From Leucoraja erinacea (taxonomy: Eukaryota), in NCBI RefSeq assembly GCF_028641065.1, contig NC_073388.1, forward strand, positions 25,110,001 to 25,174,000: DNA of 64,000 nt, written 5' to 3'. The position numbers were made by a program, and so were the translations under genes. Positions 3,221 through 64,000 of this stretch are shown piece after piece (the first letter of the stretch is position 1; each line of letters begins with the position of its first letter). Under the pieces are notes generated by a model that was not told the DNA's origin, ran no database searches, and was given only the letters and a program-made list of their open reading frames with translations.

Positions 3221-4391
3221 GTGAATATTTATGAAAAGGTCAAAATAAGTCCAGCTGCCTGGAATGGGGGCACTGTCAACATGTCCCCACACGCCATTCT
3301 GTACAAGTTTCACATGGTGCATGCCAACCATATCGTATCCCGTGCTCTCGTTAAAAACTCGTAGGTCTCTGACTTTCCCCACCCAAGAACATCCCTCATC
3401 TGTGTAAATATCTATATTTAATTCTTACCGATTATTATGTTTTTCTAGCACTCTGCGCGCGGTTCCTTATCACTAAAATATGATCTTACTAAAATAGTAC
3501 ATGAGGGTCAGGTGCTGGAATCTGGAGCAAAACACAAAGTGCTGGAGGAAATTCAGTGGGTCGGGTAGCAGCTGTGGAGGGAATGCAGTTCATACGTTTT
3601 CGGAACAGAATTAGGCCATTCGGCCCATCAGGTCCACCTCGCCATTCAATCATGGCTGATCTATCTTTCCATTGCCATCCCATTCTCCTGCCTTCTCCCC
3701 ATTACCCTGGCCATCCTTATTGAATGAATAGGCGACATTTCGGGGCAGGATCCTTCTTCAGTCTGACGAAGGTTCCCCACCCGAAACTTCGTGTACCTGG
3801 TACTGTGTGTGTTTTGCATTAGAAAATTAGAAAGTTACAGCTAAGCACAGTGTCTTTCACACCTCGAAAAGTTCAATACAATCACGGAATGTAAAAATTG
3901 AAGAGGGCCCAGTAGAAGTTTAAAAAACGCCCAAGAAATGAGTAAAGTGTACAATGGTAAACATAATGCAGGACAGGTCTGGGTGGTCCAACAGGAGGTC
4001 TGGGTGGGGGTCCAACAGGAGATTACTTCTGTAGTGGCTGGGGAGAGAATAGGAGAGGGTTGGATGCTAGTGGGCAGATGAGAGAGAACGGATGACTGAA
4101 GTGATTGGATTGGGTGAGAGCTGGTATAGATTCAACGGCCCGAACAGCCTCATCCTGTGTCTTAGGAAAAGACGGAAGGTGGAAGCTGAGAGAATTGAGA
4201 GCTGAGGTTGCTTCTCATGTGGAGTTTATAGTCGTATAGGACAGAAACAGGCCATCAGTCCCATTTATCATCAGCCCACCCCCCCCCCCCCCCCCCCCCC
4301 CCATTGAAGAGATCGCCTCCATACGTTTTTTAATCTGAGCGTTTATGGGGACTGTCGATGCTTTCGACCAATAAAGACCCATCTGATTGTG

Positions 4392-4662
4392 GTGTAGGAA
4401 GGAACTGCAGATGCTGATTTAAACCGAATATAGACACAAAATAATGGACTATCTCAGCGGGTCAGGCTGCATCTCTGGAGAGAAGAATAGACGACGTTTC
4501 GGGTCGAGACCCTTCTTCAGACTGTCTATCCGTCTATATCTCACGTTTCCTTTTCCCCTGGCTGGTCTGAAGAAAGGTCTCGACGCGAAACGTCACCCAT
4601 TCCTTCTCTCCAGAGATGCTGCCTGTCCCGCAGAGTTACTCCAGCATCTTGTGTCTATCATC
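4392..4662. mobile_element. Inverted pair of Penelope-like terminal repeats with hammerhead-like cores
   Basis: The reverse arm is 4392-4523, with an intact core on the - strand at 4493-4520. A ~42 nt pyrimidine-rich spacer follows, then the forward arm at 4565-4662. Confidence 0.75.
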
Positions 4663-5811
4663 TGATCGAGTAATTGATTAAATACGCTGCAATGTTGTTA
4701 TTGGTTTTCGGGAAGGGATCTTTGCTGCTATTTTTAGTAGCGTAGTGAGTTAACCCATGTTCCCGAGAAAACTGCAAAACTGTGTCTTGGTAACACAATC
4801 TAGAAGGTCAATGCAAATGTGTACAAAGGAACAGAAGAAAGGTCACAACCCGAAACGCCACCCATTAATTCTCTCCAGAGATGCTGCCTGTCCCGCTGAG
4901 TTACTCCAGCATTTTGTGTTTATCTTAAGTCAATACAAATACCTGAAATCCAGAAACCACTTTTAAATCAAGCAAGAAAAAAAAGTGGACATGGAATAAG
5001 GGAAAGGAGCGTAGGAAGGAACTGCAGATGCTGGGTTAAACCGAATATAGACACAAAAATGCTGCAGTAATTCAAGGGGACGGGCAGCATCTCTGGAGAG
5101 TCTGAAGAATGGTCTCGACCTGAAAAGTCACATATTCCTTTTCTCCAGAGATGCTGCCTGTCCCGCTGAATTACTCCAGGATTTTGTATCCATCTATGGA
5201 ATAATGAAAGGTATAAACATAAAACAATTACAGCATGGAAACAGGCCATCTCGGCCCTTCTAGTCCGTGCCGAACACGTACTCTCACTTAGTCCCATCTA
5301 CCTGCACTCAGATCATAACCCTCCATTCCTTTCCCGTTATATTTTGAAATTGTCACTCAATAACTTTATTTAATTTTGAAAATATTTCTATGGGAGGTAA
5401 AGAAAACGGAATACCATCGGAGAGCTGGAGCCGGATGGAAGAAAATGTTGAGAATCAGTTTTAATATCTATCGAGTTACTGTGGAAGGGTAGTTCGTGTT
5501 AGTTCCACTTTCATTTATATTTCAAGGTCAATATTCAGCGTGGTCCTCAGTCTATAAAATCGACCACGGTCAGTTTCAAGTGAGATACACCTTGCCAAAT
5601 GTCGGACGGTCAACTTAGGGCCAATGTAAAACGGGTTGGAATTGCTTGTACATTATCGCAAAAGGCAAAACCCGAAAAAAAGCTTGTGCCAAATGTGTTG
5701 TTCCCATATGTTGTTTGTAGAATCCACTATATGCAATTTACAGAACATAAAGTTAAAAATTACACGTTGCAACATTGCGATTAGAAACATTAAGCAGTAC
5801 AACTACTAAAG

Positions 5812-6222: not shown

Positions 6223-6344
6223 GATGAAACAGCAGTCCTGGGATTGACATATCTGTTACGGTCTGTTTCCTAATGAAAACCGAATGCGATTTATCCTCCT
6301 TGCTGGAGTTAATTTAAAGTTGTTTTTTGCTCTTCACTGTTCAG

Positions 6345-6842
6345 GACCCTGCCTGCCTGTTGTCCAGGAAGCCGATTAGTTACCCGGGACTGAAGGAGCG
6401 TGAGGCAGTCGCGATGCTTCACTACGGAGCTTCGGTGGTCCGGAGCAGGGTCCCCAGCGGTTCCAGCGGGCAGTTTAACCCGGGGCTGCTCGCTTCTTCG
6501 TGCGGGGTCCAGAAGCAGTCGTTCGCCCTGCACGGCCCGCAATTGCTGGCCAGCTTGCAGCTGCAGAAACTCAACAGCCAGTACCACAGCTCGGCGCTGC
6601 CACCAGCTCCGCTGCCCGGGGACGGCCAGGCCCTGGGGGATGTGCAACCCTCGGCTCAGGCCACTGCGGGGACCCCGGCCCCTCACGCACCGGGCATCAT
6701 CGACACCGACCTCATCGACGAGGACGTGCTCATGACCCTAGTGTTGGAGCTGGGCTTGGACCGAGTGAACGAGCTGCCCGAACTCTGGCTGGGCCACAAT
6801 GAATTTGACTTCACCTCGGACGTGGCGTCGGTCACTTGCTGA
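6345..6842 (+). CDS. CITED1: CITED1-like transactivator, main (last) coding exon
   Basis: The translation has the CITED motifs QLLASLQLQKLNSQY and IIDTDLIDEDVLMTLVLELGLDRVNELPELWLGHNEFDF. SYPGLKEREAVAMLHY resembles the CITED1 segment (human AYSNLAVKDRKAVAILHY, from recall). Acceptor ttcactgttcAG ends at 6344 (phase 0); stop TGA at 6840-6842. It lies upstream of RPS4X on the same strand, as in human Xq13.1. Confidence 0.9.
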   Translation, partial: DPACLLSRKPISYPGLKEREAVAMLHYGASVVRSRVPSGSSGQFNPGLLASSCGVQKQSFALHGPQLLASLQLQKLNSQYHSSALPPAPLPGDGQALGDVQPSAQATAGTPAPHAPGIIDTDLIDEDVLMTLVLELGLDRVNELPELWLGHNEFDFTSDVASVTC

Positions 6843-12720: not shown

Positions 12721-13355
12721 AGTACTAGTTAAAACAAAAAAGGTCCTCAAGACATATAATTTTGTTACACATTGAACATGTTTCCACATCATTCCTCTTG
12801 TATCTCCATTAGTTTATAGCTACAATATTTGTTTCTCTGTTAACTATTAACAGCTAAAAGAACATTAAAAAAATTGTTTAATTTAGTTTAGATACAGCAC
12901 GGAAACAGGCCCTTCGGCCCACCGGGTCTGCAACCACCAGCAATCCCCGCACACTAACACTATCCTACACAACAGGGACAATCTACAAATTTACATTTAT
13001 AGCAAGCAAATTTTCCTACAACTTGTATGTCTTTGGAGTGTGGGAGGAGCCTCGCACACAACAGAAGCTTTTCACTGTACCATGGTACACGTGAGAATAA
13101 ACAAAATGAAAATAACAGAGAACCCGGGGAAAACCCACACAGGTCACGGGGAAAACGTACAAACTCCGTACAGACAATAGACAATAGGTGCAGGAGTAGG
13201 TCATATGGCCCTTCGAGCCAGCGCCGCCATTCGCATGGTTGATCATCCACAGCATCCATAGTCTGGATCTCCATTCTTCTATATTTGTTGCTCTCATTTT
13301 GAACTGGTTACATTCACTGGGATATATAAAATATAAGAACGTGCAATACATTGAA

Positions 13356-13632
13356 CTGAGACAAAAGTGCTGGAGAAACTCAGCGGGTGCGGCAGCATCT
13401 ATGGAGCGAAGGAAATGGGCGACGCTTCGGACCAAACCCCTTCTTCAGACTTCCGAAACGTTGCCTACTTCCTTCACTCCATAGATGCTGCTGCACCCGC
13501 TGAGTTTCTCCAGCACTTTTGTCTAAATACAATGTATTGCACGCTCTTATATTTTACACAGGATTATTTAATCCCAGTGAACTCAACCAGTTCAAAATGA
13601 GAGCATCCAGCATCTGCAGTTTCTTCTTAAAC
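13356..13632. mobile_element. Inverted Penelope-like terminal repeat pair (second subfamily) upstream of RPS4X
   Basis: agacaaaagtgctggagaaactcagcgggtgcggcagcatctatggag and its reverse complement meet near 13450. Confidence 0.75.
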
Positions 13633-34963: not shown

Positions 34964-35714
34964 CACTTGTTTTTTTCCCAGGGCCTGGCCTTCTTCTGTT
35001 CTGACACAATGTGGTGGAATAGATTACTGGCAAAGGTGGAGGCAAGAACCAGAAAATCTCTGGCCTCACAATACACTGATTTGGAAGGGCTACAGGTTGG
35101 GCAAGTTGGCTGATAGACAGCAGCAAGATGGGAAAAAAAATCAATGACCTTGCTCCAAATGCTCCCTGTGACTAAATGGGTTGTCTCCAGATGCCGCGGT
35201 TTCCTACCACATCCCAAAGATATATTGTTTGAAAGGTCAATTTTTCACTATAAATTGTCCTGAATGTGTAGGTGAGTGTTAGAATCTGGGAGAATTGAAG
35301 AGTATATGGTGAGAGTAAAAATTGGGATTCATGTAGGTTCATGTAAAATATGTAGTTAATTGTTGATATAGACTTGATGGGCCAATGGGCCTGTTTCTGT
35401 GTTGTATCGCTCTGTAGCTTGACTTCTGTTTCTTGCTGCACCATTAACCAAGACATAGGTCATCACATAATGCATTTTGATTGTATCTACAAATGTTGAA
35501 ATGAAATTGGAAATCACTTCCTTGCTAGAAAGATTGGAAGAGGCTCTATGAAAACACACTTACATTTGGTGCTGGGCTCTCATATGTTCCATAGCCATTT
35601 GTAGAGACTTTTAGGCAGGTTTGCCAAGTCACAAGACATTTCACTGTGTAAACCCATCTGTAGTTTACTGCATTGAAATCCATATGTTAGTCCATACGAT
35701 TTGATAAAGCAAAG

Positions 35715-36522
35715 ATGAGTCAGCCTACAGGGAAGAGGTCCAGCACCTGACAACCTGGTGTGCCAACAATAACCTCGTCCTCAACTCTAAGAAGACAAAG
35801 GAAATTATTGTTGACTTCAGGAAGAACAGAGGGGGCAAACATATACCCATCCATATAAATGGGACTGAGGTGGAGCGCGTCTCCAACTACAAATTCCTCG
35901 GGGTACACATCTCGGAGGATCTGTCCTGGTCCCTCAATACCTCCAAACTGATCAAAAAGGCGCAGCAGCGCCTTTATTTCCTGAGGAGGCTCAAGAAAGC
36001 TCACCTGTCCCCCCAGATCCTGACCAACTTTTACCGCTGTACCATCGAAAGCATCCTGACCACCTGCTTCACCGTATGGTACAGCAGTTGCACCATAGCT
36101 GACAGGAAGGCACTACAACGGGTGGTGAAAACCGCTCAGTACATCATCGGTGCCCCGCTCCCTGCCATGGATGCCCTCCACCGAAAAACGGTGTCTGAGA
36201 CGGGCCGGGAAGATCATCAAGGACCCCTCCCACGCTAACCATGGACTGTTTGCCCTCCTCCCATCAGGGAGGCGGTACAGGAGCCTCAGGTCTCGTACTA
36301 GTAGGATGAGGAACAGCTTCTACAACAACACTATCACATTGCTGAACTCGGAGTCCCGCCGATAGATTTCTCCAGTCTCTCCGTCCACATTGTTTGCTTC
36401 TTCTGTATTTTTATTTCTATATTGCACTATTACTACGAACAGACGCTAAACTGCATTTCGTTGTAGCCATACTTGTATCTGTGCAATGACAATAAAGTTG
36501 AATTGAATTGAATTGAATTGAA
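35715..36522 (+). mobile_element. Rex1/Babar-type LINE 3' fragment (relatively young)
   Basis: YKFLGVHISEDLSW, KKAQQRLYFLRRL and LPSGRRYRSL; ends in caataaag(ttgaa)n. Confidence 0.9.
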
Positions 36523-40426: not shown

Positions 40427-41582
40427 CAAATATGCCTGTGTGTTGTGACGTGTTATTTTAGGAATGAAATAAGGGACTTGCTTGCCTGTTTTGATGTGAT
40501 TGAAAGCATAATCTGTTCAAACATAAATGTCATTTTACAACATGTTTAGAAATATAGAAGAATGACTTTTAACCTATTTAAATATACAGTGCACTCCATA
40601 ATGTTTGGGACAAAGACCCATCATTTATTTATTTGACTCTGTACTCCACAATTTGAGATTTGTAATCGAAAAAAATCACATGTGGTTAAAGTGCAAACTG
40701 TCAGATTTTATTAAAGGGTTTTGATATACATTTTGGTATCACCATGTAGAAATTACAGCTGTGTTTATACATAGTACCCACATTTTAGGGCATAATAATG
40801 TTTGGGACACCTGGCTTCACAGGTGTTTCTAATTGTTCAGGTGTGTTTTTAATTGTGTCCTTCATGCAGGATGCAAGAGGACTCTCAGCATCTAGTCTTT
40901 CCATCAACTTTGGAAACTTTTATTGCTGTTTATCAACATGAGGACCAAAGTTGTGCCAATGAAAGTGAAAGAAGCCATTGTGAGACTGAGAAACAAGAAT
41001 AAAACTGTTGCAGATATTAGCCAAAACTTAGGCTTACCAAAATCAACTGTTTGGAACATCATTAAGAAGAAAGAGAGTACTGGTGAGCTTACTAATCGCA
41101 AAAGGACTGGCAGGCCAAGAACAACATCCACAGCTGATGATAGAAGAATTCTCTCTATAATAAAGAAAAATCCACAAACACCTGTCCGACAGATTGTCAA
41201 TGACCACTGTCCGCAGACGATTTCATGAACAGAAATAAGAGCAAAATATGGAGGAGAGAAGGAACTGCCCAAGATCCAAAGCATACCACCTCATCTGTGG
41301 GGGGTGTTATGGCCTGAGCATGTATGGCTGCTGAAGGTACTGGCTCACTTATCTTTATTAATGGTACAACTGCTGATGGTAGTAGAAGTGAATAGACACA
41401 TCCTATCTGCTCAAGTTCAAACAAATGCTTCAAAACTCATTGGCCGGCGGTTCATTCTACAGCAATACAATGATCCTACACATATTGCTAAAGCAACAAA
41501 GGAGTTTTTCAAAGCTAAACAATGATCAATTCTTGAGTGGCCATCAATCGCCTGATCTGAACCCAATTGAGCCTGCCTTTTA

Positions 41583-43197
41583 CAGTGCATTCAGAAAGTA
41601 TTCAGACCCTTTCACTTTTTCCACATTTTGTTACGTTACAGCCTTATTCTAAAATGGATTAAATTCATTTTTTTAATCAGCAATCTACACACTATAGCCC
41701 ACAATAAAAAAGCGAAAACAGGTGTTTAGAAATTTTTGCAAAATAATAAAAAATAAATAACTGAAATATCACATTTACATAAGTATTCAGACCCTTTACT
41801 CAGTACTTTATTGAGGCACCTTTGGCAGTGATTACAGCCTCAAGTCTTCTTGGGTATGACGCTACAAGTTTGGCACACCTGTATTTGGGTAATTTCTCTC
41901 ATTTTTTTCTGCAGATCCTCTCAAGCTCTGTCAGGTTGGATGGGGAGCGTTGATGCACAGTAATAGTCAGGTCCCTCCAGAGATATTCGATCGGGTTCAA
42001 GTCCGGGCTGTGGCTGGGCCATTCACGGACATTCACAGACATGTCACAAAGCCACTCCTGTGTTGCCTTGGCTGTGAGCTTTGGGTTGTTGTCCTGTTGG
42101 AAGGTGAACCTCTGCCCCAGTCTGAGGTCCTGAACGCTCTGGAGCAGGTTTTCATCAAGGATCACTCTGTACTTTGCTCCGTTCATCTTTCCCTTGATCC
42201 TGACTAGTCTCCCAGTTCCTGCCACTGAAAAACATCCCCACAGCATGATGCTGCCACCACCATGCTTCACTGTAGGTATGGTATTGGCCAGGTGTTGAGC
42301 GGTGCCTGGTTTCCTCCAGACGTGACACTTGGCATTCAGGCCAAAGAGTTCAATCTTGGTTTCATCAGGCCAGGGAATCTTGTTTAGGTGCCTTTTGGCA
42401 AACTCCAAGCGGGCTGTCATGTGCCTTTTACTGAGGAGTGGCTTTCGTCTGGCCACTCTACCATAAAGGCCTGATTGGTGGAGTGTTGCAGATATAGTTG
42501 TCCTTCTGGAAGGTTATCCCATCTCCACAGAGAAACTCTGGAGCTCTGTCAGAGTGACCATCGGGTTCATGGTCACCTCAATGACCAAGGCCCTTCTCCC
42601 CGGATTGCTCAGTTTGGCTGAGTGGCCAGCTCCATGAAGAGTCCTGGTGGTTTCAAAGTTCTTCTATTTAAGAATGACGGAGGTCACTGTGCTCTTCGGG
42701 ACCTGCAATGCTGCAGAAATAGTTTCATACCCTTCCCCCGATCTGTGTCTCAACACAATCCAGTCTCGGAGGTTTACAGACAATTCCTTCATCTTCATGG
42801 CTTGGTTTTTGCTCTGACATGCACTGTCAACTGTGGGACCTTATATAGACAGGTGTGTGCCTTTCCAAATCATGTACAATCAATTTAATTTACCACTGGT
42901 GGACTCCAATCAAGTTGTAGAAACATCTCAAGGATAATCAATGGAAACAGATGCACCGAAGCTCAATTTTGAGAGTCACAGCAAAGGGTCTGAATACTTA
43001 CGTAAATGTGATATTTCAGTTATTTATTTTTAATTATTTTGCAAAAATTTCTAAACACCTGTTTTCACTTTTATATTATGAGGTGTTGTGTGTAGATTGA
43101 TGATTAAAAAAATGACTGTAATCAATTTTAGAATAAGGCTGTAATGTAACAAAATGTGGAAAAAGTGAAGGGGTCTGAATACTTTCTGAATGCACTG
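41583..43197 (-). mobile_element. Tc1 DD34E-type transposon (inner, IR/DR type, 1615 bp)
   Basis: TA duplication at 41581-41582 and 43198-43199. TIRs of about 215 bp begin CAGTGCATTCAGAAAGTATTCAGACCC. Transposase is on the - strand. Confidence 0.95.
41800..42798 (-). pseudogene. Disrupted Tc1 transposase of the inner element
   Basis: Motifs [44 protein letters not shown] and KGASIKY*. In-frame stops and a deletion before the first catalytic D. Confidence 0.92.
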
Positions 43198-43742
43198 TAT
43201 ATGCTGAAGAGAAAACTGAAGGGGGCTAGCCCCCAAAACAAGCCTAAGCTATAGGATGGTTGCAATACAGACCTGGTAGGGCATCACCAGAGAAGCCAAC
43301 CAGCAACTGGTGATGTCCATGAGTTGCAGACTTCATTGCATGCAAAGGATATGCAACAAGATACTAGACATATAAACATCACTACTTTCATTTACATGAC
43401 ATTGCTGTGTCCCAAACATTATGGTGCCCTGAAATGGGGGTACTATGTATAAACACTGCTGGAATTTCTACATGGTGAAACCAAAATGTATAAAAATGGC
43501 CTTTATTAAAATCTGACAATGTGCACTTTAACCACGTGATTTTTTTCTATTACAAATCTCAAATTGTGGAGATCAGAGGCAAATAAATAAATGATGGGTC
43601 TTTATCCCAAACATTATGGAGGGCACTATACTGATCTAATTGTCAATTCTTTCATCCATCAAAAAATATCAATGGGAGACTTGCTTTTTAATGGCATTTT
43701 TGGAGCAGGGATTCATTTAACTTTTCCTTAATTTTGCTACAG

Positions 43743-45492: not shown

Positions 45493-45750
45493 TTCATATT
45501 CCGCCTGGGTTGCTTGCGTCCGGATGGCATGAACGTGGAATTCTCCCAATTTTGCTAGCCCTTGCTGTCTCCTCCCCTTCCTTAACCCTCGAGCTGTCTC
45601 CTCCCATCCCCCCGCCCTCGGGCTCCTCCTCCTCCTCCCTTTTTCCTTCCTTCTTCCCCCCACCCCCCATCAGTCTGAAGAAGGGTTTCGGCCCGAAACG
45701 TCGCCTATATCCTTCGCTCCATAGATGCTGCTGCTCCCGCTGAGTTTCTC
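45493..45750 (+). mobile_element. Penelope-like element 3' end: endonuclease-domain C-terminus plus pLTR with a hammerhead-like core
   Basis: 45493-45558 encodes FIFRLGCLRPDGMNVEFSQFC*, resembling the LIFRLGTLxPxGMN C-terminus of vertebrate Penelope-like GIY-YIG domains. A pyrimidine tract follows, then CTGAAGA-A-GGGT-TTCG-GCCC-GAAA-CGTC at 45675-45702. Confidence 0.75.
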
Positions 45751-47642: not shown

Positions 47643-49597
47643 CTGTTACTTGAAATAATTCATCAATTATTTGTATTTTACAAATAAATCAGAAGTAACA
47701 AATAAATGAGAAGGAATACATTAGCATGGTAAAGACTAAGCCTAGTATCAGCATAAATGTTTTTGACCGAATGCCATTATTCCAAAACAATCCTGCAAAT
47801 ATGTGATTACAGGCTGCTGTGTAGATGCTTATAAGTTACATAAAGCAAACGCATTCACACCATCTCTAGCAAAAATGATGCTTTCAATCTGGGGAAAATC
47901 CATTTACAACTGAAGAAGACTGAATGAAAAGTAAACATTCAAGTTCATAATGCATTGGAAAAAAAAGATTTATTTATATACTTTTTTAAAAGCTGTACAT
48001 TAAGTTGATTAATTTAAAAAAAGGTAATAATACAAAAGACAGTTTCCATTCTTAGATTTCTTTTCCCACATTTCCCTCCATACATATAAAGGCCCCAATT
48101 GGCCCCAGAGGCAGGCAAAGGCTATTAGAACTAAACGAAAATAAGGCATGTTCATTATTATTCATGTTAAATTTTGACCAATGCAAGCACCAGCAGATTA
48201 CAAATCTTCTATCCCTGTCCATTTTTGGACAGGAGACAGATAGAGCTGTGTTAATTTTGAAATCATGGTTTGAATTCTGAAAAATACTTATTAATAATGA
48301 AGATAAATGAGGGATATTATTAGTCTTAAAAATAAACAGACAGCAAATTGTATCTGTCGTCCAGATTTAATTTGAGAAAATTATCAAATGGACGATTAAA
48401 AAAAAGACCAAAACTGAACGATCACAAATCCTGGAAGAAGACTGTGATATGGGAGAAGGTAAAAATGTTAAGGAAGGAATCATAGACAAGCAAAATTTGG
48501 AAGAAAATGGATAAAGAGCAGAGGTGGTTTGTGCCTGCATCAACTGCAGGTATGAGCCTTTGCATTGGCTAGTAGGAACCTTTGACAGTACCAATATGAG
48601 GAGAAAATGGACAAAACACATTTTCTATCCAAATTGTGGGTTGTGGTGGCTTACCAGCAGAACCCACTCTTGGAAATTCCAAATGAGAGTTACCAACAAC
48701 ACTGCTAAATTCTGAACAGAGAGGACTGCCGAATCTAATTTAATTTAAAGTACAAAAAATAAAGTAGAGGAGGGCAATATGTGGTATACATACAACACAA
48801 ATAGGAAGATATTTTATGCAGCAATATTCACTGCTGGGGAGACCAACTCTTGGACATGTAGTTGCATGATTTGATGCCCTTTATATCATCATCCAGGCAG
48901 GACTGAGTTTCAACCCACTATCTTATGCGGTTCAGATGGAAATTCAGATGGATTGTGGTAAAAGGGTGGGATAACATTTTAGTCGACTTTGCGCTTGTGA
49001 GAAGAGGGTCTCCATCCAGCTCAAGCAAAGTCATTGATGAAAGAGGAGAGGGTTAGGGTTCATCAACTCCCACTCACTAAGGGCTTCTGTACCATGGAGT
49101 GGCAGAAGGCAGGTGAACAAGGCTCTCAAAAGGTGATTGTATGATTCACTGTTTGCCATGAATCCCTGAATATTTAACATGTCTAGACTTTCTCACAAAA
49201 AGCTGAAAGGAAAGCATATGGCACAGGAGATTGGACACTCACTTCACCCGACCCTATGCTCTGGAAGGCAGCCATCTTATAGGAGGTTAAAACGCACAGC
49301 GTCACCATGGCAACTCATTGTTCACAGGGTGATTATAGGACCTCCACCAAAGGCCCCAAGCTGTGTTTATGTTAGCGCTAGAGAACACTGATGGATACTT
49401 CCTCTTACTTATTCTGAGATTTTACCCCCTCCCCCTCATAGGAATTGGCACCACGTTTGAAATTGCTGAATAAGAAATAATTATAAAAAAAATAATTAAT
49501 GCCTACAAATAAATAGTTTACAGTCAGGGTGGACATTAGGAAACTGTGGAAAACTCACAATCCTCTGTTTATTCCAGAAGTTGCATGCATACATGCT

Positions 49598-49808
49598 TAA
49601 AAACAAAGTGCTGGAGTTACTCAGTGGGTCAGGCAGCATCTGTGGAGGGAATGGACAGAAGATGTTTCGGGACGGGACTCTTTCAGCAGTCTGAAGAAAT
49701 GTCCCGACCGGAAACATCATCTGTCCATTCCTTCATCACATGCTGCCTGACCCACTGAGTCTCTGCAACACTTTGTCTTTTGCTCAGGATTGCAAGATCT
49801 GCAGTTTC
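49598..49808. mobile_element. Older inverted Penelope-like terminal repeat pair
   Basis: Same architecture. Other copies or arms lie at about 2333-2380, 3505-3790, 4833-4925, 5010-5195, 14787-14950, 24286-24408, 25895-25985, 31510-31600, 33740-33825, 50150-50310, 53806-53889, 56504-56636, 59199-59386 and 59819-59935/60424-60508. Confidence 0.7.
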
Positions 49809-51849
49809 ATATGTTTCCATGCGAACGTGCTCTCTACATACATCACCAGCAGGTGATACTCTTCACCACATTTAGGCCACTAATATTAATCAATGAGCAA
49901 ATATTCCAAGTTAGGAATCAGATTGATTACAAGCATGAACATTAATGAATAGTCGAAATGAATGTTCCTGGAATGATTTAAACTGGAAATATCACTGTTC
50001 AAATCCAACTGCTTTTTAATGTCCCTCTGTTGAAAGTTCAGTGCATCTATCACTTTCGGTGCTGGTGTTAGATTCTGAGCTTAATGAAGCACCGTGAAGC
50101 ATTTTATGGTAGATTAGCGTCTCCCAACTTCATCTGTGAAAATGTAACAAAAAGGAACTGCAGATGTTGGTTAAGACCAAAGATAGACACAAAATGCTGG
50201 AGTAACTGAAGCGACCGATTCAGTCTGAAATAGGGTCCCGATTTGAAACATTACCTATCCATTTTCTCCAGAGATGCTGCCTGACTTACTCCAGCATTTT
50301 GTGTCTCTATTCACCTGTGGTGAATTAAACAAAATATTATAACCAGTGGCAAATGGTTTTTTGGTATTCATTCATCTCTTGGGTGGTATTGTGTCATATC
50401 TTTCTCGGAGCTGGAGGGTTGTTATCATTCTTCTGTAAGCTTAGGAATTCCTATATCTCCAACACCTAGCAATCTGCCTATAACTGGCTAATGTTTGGGT
50501 TACTTGTTGACTGGATGTGTACTTATATCCCTCCTCAATTCAACTTAAATTGTGTGAAGGAAAGTGACTGTTGGGATCAGAAGGACTTTGTGCTTTTAAC
50601 CATCAGACAACACCAATCTCAAACATGGATGGAACAGATTGGACAAACATTAAAATTCCCTCAACATGGTTCATAATCATTTTTTTGTTGGATGTAACAT
50701 GAATCAGTTGAGATCTGAAGTTGTTTCTTAAAGGTCTCTTGAATTTCATTCAAATAACGTGAAACAAAACATATTAAAATAAACATCTCTACGCTGCCAC
50801 ATCAGCTCAGAAAGGAAAGGTAAAGGTCTGTCTGCTTTGCCAGGTTAATCAGATTTACATGATCTGAAGATTATGGCTATTTGTTTTATAGAAATAAAGC
50901 TTTGATACCAGCAAGTTTACAAGTTCTTAGAAGAGAAATACAATCCCAGTCTCTTGTGGTAAATGCTTAATATATAAGCACCTATACACTGTTCTGAAAT
51001 TCAATGCAATTGACATCAATAGATCATTATATGTTGAATTAGCACCCAGTAGAGATTTTCGCAAACTACTTCTCTCAAAAATCCTTTCTCTCATCAAGGT
51101 GGGCAATGTGTGAAATCTTTCATACTTTAAAGGAAAATTTTTATTCATGAGCGCTGAAGCTTGTTATGAAGCATCGAGTAATTTCCTTTCTAAATGTTTT
51201 CTCCATAAATTTGCCATCATTCTGCTGAGCTGAATATGATATATTTGGTCATTTCACAGCGCAAGGAAACACATTCAATGTTTGTTCAGCACAAATAATT
51301 ACAAATGAAAAGGAAAGAAGGGAAATTGTCACAATATTTGATTCCTCATATTCGTGGAAATACATGAAGAGTCACATTCTTGACATTGTGATTTCCACAT
51401 CTAAGGCAGGCAATATTGCACCTAATGTAAATTAATTGATACAGTCTGCAGTGGAATCTCAACCACACACCTTGGGAAATGTTCTTAGTCACATGTTTTT
51501 GTTATTTGCATTCTTGCATTCTTCTACAGTTTCCTGAAAAGACGTGGAAAAGGCAACCCAAATTGGACATAAGAAGAGTTTTTTCTATCCCTTTTCACAT
51601 TTTCAGAGTAAAAATGGTACTATGTCTAACATGTACCAAGGAAAATACACTAGGCTTGATACATTCAACAGATTGTAGTTACTTTGAAAATTATTATTGT
51701 GTACTCATTGTTTATGTGTTTTACTTGAGGCCTGTACTAGAAAACAATTGCAGGCTTTTAGGACACACAAATGTATGCATTATCAAGAAAAGTCTTCAAC
51801 AAATGAGAGTTGTTGGTTATATCAATATGATCAATAAATCATAAGGCAT

Positions 51850-53070: not shown

Positions 53071-55688
53071 ACTTTTTTTTAATGACAAGGTGCAAAGAAA
53101 TATAAATTTCCTGTTTCCAACTAAACTCATCAATGAATTTACTAGGACAATGCAATATATTACTACGTACATTTTCAGGTGTTGAAAGTACAGCTTATGT
53201 TCTTTTTTCTATTTCCCCCAATGGTGATGAGATCTTACCACAGAATGTATACTTTTTTTATAAATCACAACTTCATAAAGATGGTTTTAATTTGATGAAT
53301 GAAAAGTCTTGACATTTTATCCAAAGTGTTTTTCAGCATCCTTTATCGAACCTGCTCTTGATTTAGATTCTACCTTAGCTAGTTGATGGTTCCTTGAATA
53401 AGAAAACCCTTCAGATACCCCTAAATCCTCCTGCCCCTCATATTTCCACAAAATATTTCCCATTCATTAATTCTCACTTGTACTGCCGAAATATTTTTCG
53501 GTGAACAATTTCTACTATAAAATCATGTTTATATTAGGACTGTAAGTGGCTTTTTGGTGACTCAAGAAATAAAAGACAAAGTGAGTTTCTTTGTTTTGGT
53601 CGTCTCAGAGTTGGATGTTCTGGTTGGTGATTACTGGACTCACAAAACTAGGAGTTCACTGAATAATTGAGATCCTACTAAATCCAAGACCTTTGTATCT
53701 CTTCCAGAACCAGCAGGACCCAAATGGTTATATCCTGTGCTGGGTTATGCTTTTACACTTGAGCTTCAGTGATGGCGAGCTGGTTCCAGCAAAGGGATTA
53801 ATTCAAAGATAGACACAAAATGCCGGACTGGCAGCATCTCTGGAGAGAAGGAATGGGTGACGTTTTGGGTCGAGACCCTTCTTCAGACTGATTCATTCAG
53901 ATGTCTTCCATCATTTGTGTGTTCTCTTCAAGTGATTGGAGGATTCACCTGAAGGAAACATAAAAAGGAAGGGAAGAATAGCAAATCTTTCTTGAAAACG
54001 ATACAAGTTTATTTGTGTTTGTATTTTTTAACATGTTCAATAAATTAATAATAATTAAAAAAAATTAAAAAAAACTTTTATTGCCAATCAATTAACTCTC
54101 TTGGTGATGCAAAATATTACTCATGATTAACATCAATGAAAACATTGTGCAACCTTGATATAATGTGCCTCATTCCTTCGCAGTATTGAATAATGGAGAT
54201 TATTACGTCCCCCAACACAGAAATTAGGTAAATATTAATTTGATGTAGAATGTGGGTAGCTTATAAGATGGGTGTTTAGGTCAACCCCAACACTTGTGTA
54301 ATATCAAGGTTCCAATGTATTATTTTCCATCTACTTAGACTCCTCACTGGTTGGAGTTGCAAAACTGTCACAATGTGATATCTGCGGCCTGCACTCTCTG
54401 CTCACGGAGTTCATGATCTGGCCATGTTAAAATGGGAAGCTACTGAATGGAGAGGTCAAATTTCCCATGGAAGAAGGAAAAAATGAAGAGCAAGTCACTC
54501 ATGCACCTTACAGCTGCCATTTTGTTTGAGACAGGAAACAAAGTCAACCACCTGCTACCTAGATTGTGAGTGAAGAAATGGGATAACCTGAATATTGGGC
54601 TGTGACGACAGAAGCCGCACTTGCCTACGCCTGTCAACTATAGACATGTAGATAGGGAGCTATTCAGCTATCAAAACAGGCATTAAACTGCAGCCATGTT
54701 GGGGACCCATACCAATTTGCTCAAATACTTCTGGACAAAGAAATATTTTTGTAAAGTTATCGGTTATCGCTGGTTAGCACGGACTCAATGGGCGAGTGCT
54801 ACGAAAAGGTGCTGAGGTAGAATATAAGCCATGATATAGATAAATGGCAGAGTATTCATGAAGGGCCCTATGACCTACTCCTATTCCAATTTCTTATGTT
54901 GCAATCAATAAATCAAAAGTTATTTTCAATTTAAAATGCATGGAATTGGAACTTGTGGTTTTATGTTTTTGATGGCATAACCTGCTTGAAATCATTGATA
55001 ACTTTTGTAAGTCCAGGGGACTTGGTGCACAAACAACACCTCATAACTGATTTTAATATATTCATCAATTTACTTCATTTCCACCCAATATTTGATGCTA
55101 ACTTATTTTCTCCTTTGGGCCATTCAAATTTTTTACCTTTAAATTCACCAAATTAGTCACATAAATGAGCAAACGTTCAAGTATTTAATTTAATTTAATG
55201 TGTTTAATGAAACGACCCCTCCCCTCCCACACCCCATTCTTCAATCCATGCCCCAATTAATTTAAAGATTATGATTTTATGCAATTAGTACAGTGAAGTT
55301 GCACAAAGGTTGACAGGAAATATTCACAGGGCAACAACGAGAGGCTGTGGAACTATAGAATTGTTGTAACACAGAAGGTGGTCATTTGGTTCCCATTGAT
55401 TGTGACCTTTTCTCACCCCTCCATCCAATTCCCCCTTGATAGTCCTGTTCTCCCTGTCCCAGTGTAAACAGGCTTTTTTTAAATCACATACCCATTATAT
55501 TATACGCCTCAATTTCTAAATCTTTCACTCCTGGTTCTTGAAACATCCACCAATGGGAACATCTACCATCTTTTTACATGATATATTCTTCTCCACTCAT
55601 TCGAGAACCATCTAACGATTGGGTCACCCATAAAATGATGTACGTTCTTCATTAATTATATATTTTTATGCTCTGGAGAAGGACTTAC

Positions 55689-58445: not shown

Positions 58446-59598
58446 TTTTGGACTTGGAATATCATCTCACACAGATACCAGGCAATCAGCAGTTAAATGA
58501 GTTGTGGAGCTGTACAGCATGGAAACAGACCCTTTGGCCTATCTTGTCCTTGTCAATTTAATTGATATACTGGGCAAATCCCATTTGCTTGCATTTCCCT
58601 CCTACCCCTTACCCCTTCCAATCCATCTATTAATATTTTGGGCAAAAAGTGATGGGATGGGGAAGTTTCTGGAAGCTGTGCTGTGGGAGACAGCAGCTTC
58701 CATTGTCCAAGAGATGAGCTCCTGCCTTCTAGTAACCTGGTGTCACTACCCCACCCCTCGTGCCCCCATAGTGATGAACCACCTCTTGGCTTATACTGGG
58801 GGAGGAGGGATTGGCAGTGTGCACAGTGTGGACAAGAAGGGCAGCTGCTCAGTGGGGGTCTGGGACACACTTGCACGAATGGGATTGAGTGAATGGGATT
58901 GAGGGAGGGTAAAGAAGAACAAAGAACAAGAGGCTTTGGCAACATTGAGTGATCTACTGGTTCAGGACTGGGTGCCGAGGAAAAGGGGTGGGATGGCAGT
59001 GTTGTTGGTGGGACTGGGATTCCTGGGGGAGGGAAGCCACAGAGGCAACTGAACTGCTGGATGATGACCTTACTGAGAAAGCTACCCACTTGCTCTTGCA
59101 TCTATAATTGGAGGTGAGCATGAAGGGAGAAATAAGGATATTGTCTTCATTTTGCTGATGGTCTCTGAAGTAACCCTTGATTTTGCATTGTAGAAATAAG
59201 GAACTGCAGATGCTGGTTCACACAAAAGGACAAAAAGTGCTGGAGTAACTCAGCAGGTCAGGGAGTATCTCTGGGGAATGTGGATAGGTGACATTAAGAA
59301 GAAGGGTTCCAACTCGAAACATCACCCATCCATGTTTTCCAGGGATGCTGCCTGACCTGCTGAGTTTCTCCAGCACTTTGTGTCTTCATGTTTGTGCATT
59401 GTTCTTTAATTATGTTGAATATTCTCAGTCATCGTGCAAATAAGGTAAGAGTTAATGTGCAATACATTTCTCATCATTAATTATTTTGCATCCAACAGTT
59501 GGAAAATAAACTGTATGTAATAAAGATGTAAAGCCAATCTTTGGCCAAAATCTCTTAACCTGCAAGTTGAATGGAAGATACCGAAACAAGCTGTGAAA

Positions 59599-60422: not shown

Positions 60423-62724
60423 TAAGAAGGGTCTCGACCCTAAACGTTACCCATTCCTTCTCTCCAGAGACGCTGCCTGTCCCACTGAGTTACTCCAGCA
60501 GTTTGTGTTTAAGCCATTTATATTTGTCAGTACAAAATGGAAAAACAGCTCTTAATTCAAGCTGATTCAATCGAAAAATTCGCTTAAAATCTTGGGATAC
60601 TGTACTTTCAAGATGTTTGTATTTTAGAGAGAATTCAGTACATATGGATGAACATAATTTCCAGACCTAGTAATGAATGTAAAGAAATATTAAAAAAAAA
60701 AATTATCTTGGAGATATGTTGCTGTGGCCTTAAATGCTGAAGGGCACCAATTATTATACATCATGCAAGACTAGGAAAGGTTGCTAAACATCCCTTCCCA
60801 CCTTCTTTCATTAAGGTGCCAGTCCTGGTAATTTCTTGTACAATAGACCAAGATTTCTAAAATTAAATCCACAAAACCTTCAACGTCAATAATGTTTTTT
60901 GTAAGGTGACTCTTAATGTCCTACTTAAATAACAGATCTGGCTTTTGCTATCTCATATCATTCCATAGCCTTTTGGTCATCTGCATTCAGATTCTAATCA
61001 AAAGGGATAACTGTGACAATATCCATGTAATTTATGCATGCGAGCTGTACTCATTCTCGTACATGCTCAGACTCGCGCATATAATTATGTAAATCAGTCT
61101 GTGATCTTTAACTTGGAAATAAATAATTCTTGCTTTTGATCCCAACACGAGTGTGTGTGGAGCCATCTTTCTCCTGCTAATATGTGCTAGTTTTACCTAT
61201 ATCGTAAGCAAACACATATCAAAACAATAACTGTAATGCTATTAGATACAAGGATGACTACAAACTTATATTGCTGTGACAAAAGGCTGTCATTTTTAGT
61301 TCTGGTACTTTAGAACTGAAGTTTCAGACCTTTTTGACCTGCAGATTTGGTAAAATATGTGCCTTCCTGCAAATGCCTAATTATGTCATAAGGTGGTCCT
61401 TGTAAGAACTCAGGTAGTTTCTAACTAAACTATCCCAGCGTCATTAAAGTCTGGACCCTTGCAATCCCAAAGGAATTGTGCATTCCAAGGTAGGGAACCA
61501 TTTGCTGGCAGATCTCTGATGAATTGTGTACATTGTGGTATTATTTTGGATCACCTTTCCACAATTACAAATGTTAATGGACTGAGGTTATTGAGAAACT
61601 GACAAGTTGCATCCAACACAAGGCAATGGAGATAAGCAAAGGCAAGCAGATGACACAATCAATCTATTACTGCCTACATAGGATACTATACCACAACCAG
61701 TGGTCAATAATTTGGATTAGCCTTACAATTTGATGAAAACATGTTGGGAACCTATATTGCTGGAAAGTGACAAAGTTGCAAAAGAATAGTAGATGAGATA
61801 AACAAAGTTAATGATTAAATAGGAGCAAACGTGGGCATTCAAAGCTGAAAAGAAACGAGGAATAATGGGAAATGGGATTTGATGCTTTTGAAATCCTCAG
61901 GAGGAATAAAGAATGTGCCACAAGTATTGAACTGAATATGATATGGATTCAGTGGTAAAGAAGAGAATAAACACATTTTTGGTGTAACACAAGAACATTG
62001 AATAGAGTGATAGGGCCAATGTGTATATGCCATAAGTGCACATATGTGAATACATGAGTGGACACATGTACATATGTAAGTGTGGTTGTTTGTGTGTTGC
62101 AGTGAAGTGAAGTGCCTATTTGCAATGAACACAATAAAAGTTATCTTGTGATTGTTCTGCAGAAATGGTAGGAATTATTTTTGTCTGAATGTGTGTTGAT
62201 GCCTTTGTTGGAAATCTGTTTGGGGAATAATACAAAGAAATTGATATGCAATGAAAGTTACACAATAACAGAGATGTCCTTAGTTAATAATTGTAAGAGA
62301 AAAAAAACCTAGAAACCCTTGAGGAAGCGATCAGTTGCTCTTTGATTACAGAGAGCATTACAAAAATATCCACTGAAACCTGTTACAGCATGGCAACATG
62401 ATATCTGATTTAACACTAAATTGGACAGTAAATGAACACAATATTGTTTTATTTGCTAATCCCAAGTGGCTCAAGGCCTTGTAACTGCAGGTACCTCGTA
62501 ACATAGAAATCCAATTTCAGGACTATTTATAACTTCTCCTGCATCTTTACATCTAACTCCGACTGAGCTGAACCTAGGCAGAGTTAATAGGCTAAAAATT
62601 AATATGTTTTCCAGTTTGTGGCACCTGTTTCAGGTTTATTAGTTTATATGGAGACACACGAGAACAAAGGCTAGATTCACGGGCAAATAAAGCTGTATCT
62701 GTTCTCGAGGTGAGACTTTTTGCT

Positions 62725-63030
62725 CTTGGGATGCAGCATCATATTCTTGCACATTTTCACCAGTTACAATGTGATCCCACCAGTCACATCTTCCCTTCCC
62801 CATCCATTTTTGGTTTCTGCAGGGCCTATTTTCTCTGTGATTCCTAGTTTGCTCATTCTTCCCCACACATCCCTCCCCTTTCCCTGGCATTTCCCCCAGA
62901 AATAATAGAAGGAATTACACCTTATCCCTACACTTCTTCCCTCAACTCCATCCAGAGTACTAAACAACTCTCTCAGGTAAGACAGAGATTCGCCTGTACC
63001 TCCTTCAATCTCATCTAATGCATTCACCTC
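62725..63030 (+). mobile_element. Degraded Penelope-like ORF fragment (linker before the GIY-YIG domain)
   Basis: PYTSSLNSIQSTKQLSQVRQRFACTSFNLI*CI resembles the Neptune-type Zn-linker followed by NLIYCI. Confidence 0.6.
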
Positions 63031-64000
63031 ACCTCGAGGATAGATGCAGCTTTATTTGCCCGTGATTCTAGCATGTGTAGTCTCCTGAGAACCCTTTTCC
63101 CAGCATGAAAAAATCAAATACTAGAGGACGTAGCTTTAAGTTAAGATGGGCAAAGTTTAAAGGAGATATGCCGGGGAAGTATTTTACACAGGAGATGATC
63201 AGTGTTTGGAATGCGCTGATGTGTTCGTGGTTCAGACTGATACGATAGTGGCATTTAAGAGACTTTTGGATAGGCATACGGATATACAGGGAATGGAATG
63301 ACATGAATTATGTGCAGGCACATAAAAAATTGACCTTGGCATCATGCTCGGCAAAAACATTGTGGGCCGTAGGGCCTGTTTTGTGTTGTACTGATCTGTG
63401 TTCTAGTCTGGGAAAGGTTGGTACAAGTATAGTTCCAAGGAGAACAATATTGGATTCCTTCACACTGTCATCACCCATCTTCTGAAATCATAAAAATCTA
63501 CCCTGATATAAAATCAACAGGATGATGATCTTGGAGACAGTCGGAATAATTAGCTGGAATGGTGAAGAAACTAGCAAATGGCATGGTCATACGCATGTAT
63601 TTTTTAATTGCAGTTAAAATTTCAAGTTGAACTCTTTTAAATGCCATTCGAATGAAGATGTAGCTTGCACCAATTAGTCCAATTGTTTGCATTGATCTTC
63701 AACAAATAACTTGTTTTTAGAACATTTATAGCAGAAGGCAATTTAGGAGCGTAACACCGAAATACCATTGTGCACCAAATGATGTCTCATTCAGTGCATG
63801 GAATGAAGTCTCTGGCGGGAGAAGACAAATAGTTTCAGAGCACTAGATAGAAAACCAGAATTCTATCTTCAAATAAGCCATTAATAAAGAGTCTATGTAT
63901 TACTTCATTAAATTAGTGAACTCATGGAATATGCAGAAGCTCCAGCAGAGGGAAATAAGAACTGGAGAGCAATTTCTCGCAGGGCTTTTTTTGTATTATC

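Follow-up and report, generated by a model that had tools for sequence, protein, structure and literature searches.

The window analyzed here is a stretch of 64,000 nucleotides from the 2.19-Gb genome of the skate Leucoraja erinacea (assembly GCF_028641065.1, contig NC_073388.1, positions 25,110,001 to 25,174,000 of the forward strand), and positions are counted from its first nucleotide. A preliminary description of this stretch had noted more than 15 short elements that share one arm sequence, often as a reverse arm followed by a forward arm. Arms were counted by blastn (25 copies) and by two successive profile HMMs (28 and 30 copies), and both statements were borne out, as the profile HMM placed 7 pairs in reverse-then-forward order; reversed-sequence controls gave no profile HMM matches. 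The features are listed in Table 1. The pair at 13349-13534 is enclosed by longer inverted flanks (105-nt and 35-nt arms; 13289-13605) that reach past the arm. Elsewhere in the window, an open frame with a CITED domain (6318-6842, plus strand; Pfam PF04487, E 2e-34) marks a CITED-family host gene ∼1.7 kb from the focal element, a Tc1/mariner-like DNA transposon occupies 41581-43199 and has inverted ends of 220 nt (93%) as well as minus-strand transposase remnants, and a reverse transcriptase (RT) C-terminal fragment with a Pfam ALKBH8_N match (E 5e-20) and a weak RVT_1 match at 35708-36238 (plus strand) is likely a LINE remnant.

Table 1. Features of the focal insertion, of further arm copies and of the parent-derived copy in the 64-kb window.
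Feature	Position	Strand	Basis or remark
Small degenerate head-to-head pair of core regions	3722..3793	.	Core pattern and HMM
Left target-site duplication, 12 nt (CATCTGATTGTG)	4380..4391	+	2 mismatches vs 4659-4670
Inverted 5'-truncated pLTR copy (arm and tail)	4392..4524	-	Begins at the preferred 5' boundary, model position 1
Optional ∼38-nt tail of the inverted copy, the longer stereotyped 3' end	4392..4429	-	Inner boundary approximate
Minimal type I hammerhead, core intact	4493..4520	-	CUGAAGA, extra A, 4-bp stem II, GAAA, palindromic ACGU, C17
Head-to-head junction filler, short repeated GTCTAT word	4525..4532	.	From sequence; boundaries approximate
Forward 5'-truncated copy: ∼30 nt of PLE 3' UTR, arm, short 3' end, no tail	4533..4658	+	
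Degenerate hammerhead of the forward arm	4567..4594	+	Two stem II pairs broken; fails the descriptor
Right target-site duplication (CATCTGATCGAG)	4659..4670	+	2 mismatches vs 4380-4391
Second head-to-head pair	5020..5201	.	HMM limits; 14-nt flanking direct repeat (4991 and 5196)
Head-to-head pair, young subfamily	13349..13534	.	Profile HMM and subfamily classing
C-terminal remnant of PLE GIY-YIG ORF and stop codon	45493..45558	+	85% identity over 20 aa to L036 fragment
Pyrimidine-rich 3' UTR, young subfamily	45559..45670	+	
Young-subfamily arm, intact hammerhead core at 45675-45702	45671..45750	+	
Head-to-head pair, older subfamily	49575..49806	.	Profile HMM and subfamily classing
Head-to-head pair, reverse arm strongly truncated	50157..50312	.	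Profile HMM
Solo arm, GAAA to AAAA at 53863-53866	53796..53890	-	Change fits CpG decay
Head-to-head pair	59202..59389	.	14-nt flanking direct repeat (59178 and 59389)

The focal unit at 4392-4658 is one insertion, made up of an inverted copy with a tail of ∼38 nt and a 5'-truncated forward copy, and bounded by a 12-nt target duplication. The preliminary extent of 4392-4662 was correct at its start but not at its end, as the element stops at 4658 and the nucleotides from 4659 to 4670 are target duplication. The inverted arm was assigned to subfamily A with a posterior of 0.93. By eye, the first ∼30 nt of the forward copy look like the 3' UTR ends of three other loci (L226, L224 and L075). In the predicted fold of a transcript of the whole unit, the core of the inverted copy was fully paired with the opposite arm.

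Both hammerhead cores lay where they had been placed, the minus-strand core running from C3 at 4520 to C17 at 4493 and the plus-strand core occupying 45675-45702, and the copy with a GAAA to AAAA change was also found. The motif is a minimal type I hammerhead with the core boxes, an extra base at 9/10.1, G10.1-C11.1, a palindromic 15.2/16.2 and an NUH triplet. The extra A after CUGANGA, which had been entered as a caveat, is part of the published motif and was present in all 46 arm copies that matched the descriptor. Stem II had been said to be kept paired in two subfamilies; it does stay paired in the second, but through a U-G wobble and with no compensatory change. In the focal hammerhead, stem I consists of two G-U pairs only. 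The strict minimal-hammerhead descriptor found a palindromic loop together with stem I in just the 4493-4520 and 45675-45702 copies of the window, and a third match at 50864 was unrelated to the arms and had neither feature. A loose core pattern gave 8 matches in the window versus 1.9 expected, and none of 100 shuffles reached at least 8. The hammerhead descriptor check proposed in the preliminary description, carried out on 1.2 Mb, returned 47 matches, of which 46 lay in arm copies, and 1-2 matches per shuffle (5 shuffles). An Rfam scan of the window gave no hammerhead match at E ≤ 1. Rfam matches to MIR1507 and mir-H1 were far under the gathering score and were rejected; the two MIR1507 matches make up the inverted pair at 13376-13507.

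The abundance of the arm was estimated from 120 stretches of 10 kb (1.2 Mb) taken at round coordinates on large contigs. The profile HMM detected 513 arms, spread over 110 of the 120 stretches, and matched nothing when the sequence was reversed. This is a density of 0.43 arms per kb, or 3.9% of the sampled bases, and would amount to ∼0.94 million copies if extrapolated. Mixture clustering, which covered 348 of the 513 arms, resolved subfamilies that diverge by 4.5% to 26% from their own majority lines, a series that speaks for activity in repeated waves. At 4.5% divergence, the youngest subfamily (with L096, L043 and L214 as examples) has a U at position 17, and thereby a GUU cut triplet, and a U-G pair closes its stem II. 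Tandem arrays were present in L138 (2031-2593, 3271-3604 and 6982-7504), with units of ∼67 nt that correspond to arm positions 25-92 and mix two subfamilies; since the units begin at GAAA, without the hammerhead's 5' half, they form a pLTR-derived minisatellite rather than a retrozyme. A smaller arm-derived tandem array was seen in L190.

The arm belongs to an autonomous Penelope-like element (PLE) of the Neptune/Nematis type, which encodes an RT and a GIY-YIG endonuclease (EN), and forms the pLTR end of this element. The Penelope origin proposed earlier was thus confirmed, as RT and GIY-YIG frames carry the arm behind their stop codon. Among 20 loci chosen for their long frames, each of the 19 RT-GIY-YIG frames listed had an arm on the same strand, ∼110-130 nt downstream of its stop codon. 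Within the window, the core at 45675 lies ∼120 nt downstream of the C-terminus of a GIY-YIG frame. GIY-YIG remnants also stand directly ahead of both stem II types in the sample stretches L036, L037, L105 and L107, with RT-thumb sequence additionally ahead of the arm in L036 and L037, and a core match lay within 420 nt of 23 of 43 GIY-YIG-end matches (some duplicated). All main arm subfamilies occur behind GIY-YIG ends; together with the arms behind the ORFs, this identifies the arm as a pLTR end and not an independent element. The 3' UTRs (∼80-260 nt) differ freely between arm types, and similarity starts at TCAGT. Genome searches with a GIY-YIG-end fragment and with an RT-proximal part gave 110,859 and 6,833 first-look candidates, respectively (150 scored in each; candidates and not copy numbers), a 16-fold 3' bias. 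In the search with the RT-proximal part, open frames reached 1052 aa.

In Pfam searches, RVT_1 and GIY-YIG matched within the same frame; RVT_1 scored 32.8 bits (cut-off 29.6), and GIY-YIG had an E-value of 6e-4, its score of 20.5-21.6 being just below the cut-off of 22.6. The CCHH motif, whose two cysteines fall between GIY and YIG, was recognized by eye in the translations, and the long-ORF translations have a C-X4-C-X2-C linker between RT and EN. By the criteria given in the available text of PMC8557442, these sequences suggest a Neptune- or Nematis-type placement, based on one motif that does not part the two types. A PDB sequence search returned no relative at E ≤ 0.01. L182 holds a full-length but frameshifted partial tandem, in which direct arms stand 3.85 kb apart around the ORF: a truncated copy is followed by an arm and tail that lead straight into the ORF 5' region, and then by the second arm. 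The first in-frame ATG of L182 is at model position 168, past the tail. A coding constraint on the arm might be read from L182, where the young-subfamily frame stays open across the arm and on into the ORF, but subfamily A reads differently past the core. The parent ORF (L182:2929-4100 and L188) has a long N-terminal region, proline-rich and with short repeated segments, ahead of the RT, and totals ∼1180 codons. A weak match to a PLE linker region in the window (62926-63033, E 4e-6) lies inside a 51-nt inverted pair (62664-63078) unrelated to the arm and possibly belongs to another PLE family.

The inverted pLTR layout noted for the window was also found in the sample, where arm pairs within 100 nt were head-to-head in 99 cases and tail-to-tail in 12 (p 3e-18). 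When pairs within 500 nt were counted, 232 of the 513 arms stood in 116 head-to-head pairs and 281 outside such pairs. A tail was combined with a short end in 71 of the 116 pairs, and two tails occurred in 7. Among the 92 pairs with both outer ends, flanking repeats of at least 10 nt were present in 40 (swapped flanks, 1.5%) and of at least 12 nt in 31 (swapped flanks, 0%), while 52 had no clear duplication; the duplications were 10-18 nt long and variable in sequence. Thirty pairs flanked by target-site duplications (TSDs) were examined for the subfamily of their arms, and both arms belonged to the same subfamily in 26 of the 28 that were confidently classed (7.2 expected), as they did in 54 of 66 classed pairs overall. 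The 116 pairs had 111 distinct junction classes, so that each unit is a separate truncation product. The TSDs, the same-subfamily arms and the distinct junctions indicate that each pair is one insertion event, made anew in each subfamily. Two different RNA templates per pair, which L037 had suggested, found no support, given the subfamily agreement in 26 of the 28 pairs. A layout of an inverted truncated copy, a 30-40-bp tail and a TSD has been published for PLEs (available text of PMC8557442 and PMC3846280).

The ends of the copies were mapped on the arm model. The 5' ends of 419 arms were scored against 30 references with full 3' UTRs, and 94 arms were dropped for short or weak alignments. 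Model positions 0-5 held 124 of these ends, -9 to -4 held 5, and 30-35, where the cut site lies, held 12, with 83 further upstream; in older subfamilies the ends may be biased to the arm start where the 3' UTR is absent from the references. The peak persisted in the young subfamily, for which the references cover the UTR well (24 ends at -2 to 11, 16 far upstream and 17 later, one of them at 33). The 5' ends pile up at the 5' edge of the hammerhead and not at the cut site. Among 57 young copies, 18 had their 3' end at model positions 95-96 and 14 at 133-136, giving two fixed 3' ends 38 nt apart. In L182 (2762-2900) and in the 3' pLTR of L181, a predicted 9-bp stem between arm positions ∼52-60 and the tail encloses the short 3' end and is a candidate RT-binding or start structure.

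The RNA reads examined came from four runs, which belong to 3 studies and at most 4 samples and whose source organisms may be relatives. Read depth was far higher over the arm than over the ORF, loose ends fell at model positions 2-3, 96 and 133, and 85-96% of the arm reads continued into unlike sequence. For these four runs no position was listed at which the starts or ends of many molecules coincide, and a transcription start did not show up; the cut site likewise had no listed pile-up, the fragment-based poly(A) and single-cell libraries being insensitive to such ends. No excess of a cap-derived G was present ahead of the 5' boundary (6 G, 6 A, 5 T and 17 C). The TCAGT at the arm start fits the initiator consensus, and it can also be read as a 3' splice site behind a pyrimidine tract. 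An Inr-like element is described in a rotifer pLTR in the available text of PMC3846280.

Mutated cores, which had been noted for several copies, turned out to be the rule, with just 33 of 165 full-span cores intact; in the youngest subfamily 17 of 23 were intact. The 10.1-11.1 pair was G-C in 201 and G-U in 60 of 335 copies. G12 and the 15.2/16.2 pair lie in CpGs and decay fastest. Helix I has 2 bp in the family, its third position is A-C in 147 of 166 copies, and its predicted pairing is ∼0. Helix changes between well-sampled subfamilies were one-sided and led to G-U only. In two old copies (L218:7306 and L044:7310), the sequence on either side of the core differs and would give a helix I of 3-5 bp, which may hint that helix I was shortened in the younger subfamilies. 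Conservation of the core above the flanking arm, to which the preliminary description had attached its reading, was not clearly found. Non-CpG substitution was 6.8% in the core and 9.0% in the arm (p 0.002), in rows whose selection favours intact 5' ends, and between subfamilies 1 of 11 core positions varied versus 12 of 47 arm positions (p 0.43; 0 of 11, p 0.10, with the CpG site discounted). In the tail block, 0 of 13 positions varied between subfamilies.

Folding predicted that the core of a whole inverted unit is hidden within a single long hairpin, with a stem II probability of 0, and that single arms also favour a competing hairpin. A designed dimer helix III, from which stem I was omitted and which is weak as a test, reached -13.3 kcal/mol versus -24.2 kcal/mol for the predicted cofold. 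Each pair carries one core per strand, so that the stubs, as the short copies are called here, cannot adopt the dimer fold. In vitro, minimal hammerheads of metazoan PLEs were inactive as monomers and had low activity as dimers (available text of PMC4209133), and the hammerhead of an Anolis PLE cleaves only with its own protein and is dispensable for insertion (PMC11167929, as far as available).

The preliminary description had read the elements as a candidate non-autonomous, retrozyme-like family. In a family of this kind, short hammerhead RNAs would self-cleave, circularise and be copied in trans by the PLE enzyme. This would agree with the match of the motif to the minimal hammerhead descriptor, with the abundance of arm reads in RNA, with a GIY-YIG end within 700 nt upstream of only 34 of the 513 arms, and with the pLTR derivation of retrozymes and their presence in one sampled chondrichthyan (available part of bioRxiv 10.64898/2026.07.22.740005). 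By the definition given there, however, non-LTR retrozymes are consecutive tandem units, each with a whole hammerhead. They share a type I hammerhead, a pLTR origin and short non-coding units with the skate stubs, which in contrast are solo or inverted and have TSDs, rather than the cut site, as their limits. No tandem run of whole cores was found in 1.2 Mb: core-spanning same-strand neighbours within 300 nt numbered 8 among the 513 arms, all at different loci and with no run of three. Moreover, the arm stands behind 19 of 19 listed ORFs, nearly all pair junctions are unique, most cores are decayed and not clearly better conserved than the rest of the arm, the cut site is not where units start, paired cores are predicted to pair mutually, and most arm reads run into unlike sequence like passengers in host transcripts. 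The retrozyme reading is largely refuted for the bulk of the copies and has a very small chance of being right. The warning that the family could be mistaken for MITEs was well founded, as the copies are short, high-copy and inverted. A MITE-type DNA transposon, whose terminal inverted repeats the arms would be, is nevertheless refuted by duplications of variable sequence and length rather than TA or TTAA, by asymmetric ends with a tail on one side and by the arm being the end of an RT-encoding element; more than half of the arms also lie outside head-to-head pairs, and the probability of this reading is negligible. It is also improbable, though less so than the retrozyme, that some inverted stubs were re-mobilised as units by PLE protein in trans, with pLTR sequences sufficing in cis. 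Movement in trans of pLTR-flanked cargo is reported from a rotifer (available text of PMC3846280), and one junction class was counted 4 times and two others twice each. The 4 recurring junctions, however, lie on a near-palindromic 7-mer at the arm start, three of them in different arm types (L046, L100 and L214), which suggests independent formation, and all but a few junction classes are distinct.

A further alternative concerns the fixed 5' boundary, which need not be a transcription start: it could instead be a 3' splice site, or the near-palindromic 7-mer could act as a hot spot for RT pausing or template switching. Ahead of the core there is a pyrimidine tract and then CAG, an intron of D. 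virilis ends at helix I (available text of PMC4209133), and junction palindromes are known (PMC3846280, likewise in part). On the other hand, no common upstream exon stood out, 260 of 341 stubs had no upstream match to another copy, and a pause at a structure would be expected 3' of the fold. We regard this alternative as unlikely, yet as a more serious contender than those above.

The elements are very probably best explained as a whole as cut-short insertions of PLE pLTR ends, in which the layout is seen directly and the integration route is proposed by analogy with the Anolis PLE. In the available text of PMC11167929, two internal RT start sites delimit the tail of that element, and its protein cuts and extends both target strands. 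By analogy with these in vitro results, the skate PLE nuclease would make a staggered cut in the target, RT would start internally on the RNA, either ∼96 or 133 nt away from the arm start, both target ends would receive a copy, and the two copies would meet head-to-head. On the simplest reading, judged from end positions only, most stubs may owe their shortness to an RT that begins on the upstream pLTR and reaches the RNA 5' end at the initiator-like TCAGT, where it runs off, and longer copies may derive from the downstream pLTR of a read-through RNA. The pile-up of 5' ends at the hammerhead edge rather than at the cut site fits such run-off cDNA. That most of the ∼0.9 million stubs are run-off ('strong-stop'-like) cDNAs, with RT start at 96 or 133, a 5' end at TCAGT and often both ends of a staggered cut used, is a tentative proposal that we hold at somewhat below even chance. 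The ribozyme, if it works at all, would act in the parent RNA, protein-assisted or as a dimer between same-sense pLTRs, and not in the stubs.

Similar to EN+ Neptune/Nematis PLEs, as described in the available text of PMC8557442 and PMC3846280, the skate family has an RT with a C-terminal GIY-YIG, the CCHH motif and the CX4CxxC linker, pLTRs in partial tandem, heavy 5' truncation, an adjacent inverted head-to-head copy, a 30-40-nt tail at one end and a TSD of variable length. It differs from the elements described there in its very high density, in most copies being 100-135 nt long with a sharp 5' boundary, and in the long proline-rich N-terminal region. The hammerhead shares with published minimal PLE hammerheads the CUGANGA and GAAA boxes, the extra base between 9 and 10.1, G10.1-C11.1 and the palindromic 15.2/16.2, and in both cases the motifs are mostly dispersed singly in truncated PLEs, with some opposite-strand pairs. 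Helices II and I are 4 bp and 2 bp in the skate versus 7-8 bp and 4-5 bp in Schistosoma, helix I of D. virilis also having 2 bp, and the U at position 17 of the youngest skate subfamily sets it apart from the published motifs. Two supplementary files of the published PLE hammerhead work contained no shark or skate term. The Anolis Poseidon element PAc resembles the skate PLE in its two stereotyped 3' ends bounding a tail, in the hammerhead within the pLTR and in the lack of RNA-seq ends at the cut site; in contrast to the skate PLE, it belongs to the Penelope/Poseidon clade, lacks the zinc finger in the linker and has an ORF that begins at stem II, whereas the first in-frame ATG of L182 lies past the tail (PMC11167929, available text).

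The PLE class, the hammerhead motif and the inverted-plus-tail layout are already published, and the finding is therefore mainly one of annotation. No description of the skate stub family or of its fixed 5' boundary was found in the literature searched; Repbase, Dfam and subscription journals were outside the scope, and the family could well be catalogued already. Stubs make up ∼4% of the sampled bases, and repeat libraries could mislabel them as MITEs, SINEs or microRNA hairpins. The main value lies in the end statistics: the two priming sites and the duplication length can be read from hundreds of thousands of independent insertions, together with a 5' boundary that is sharp and lies off the cut site. 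These bear on open questions of PLE integration and of the role of the hammerhead, and yield predictions for an in vitro assay of the Anolis type. If the run-off proposal is true, ∼4% of the genome would preserve, as a direct fossil map, where the RNA of a Neptune-type element starts, where its two priming sites lie and how its target is cut, and would show that the hammerhead does not set the template ends.
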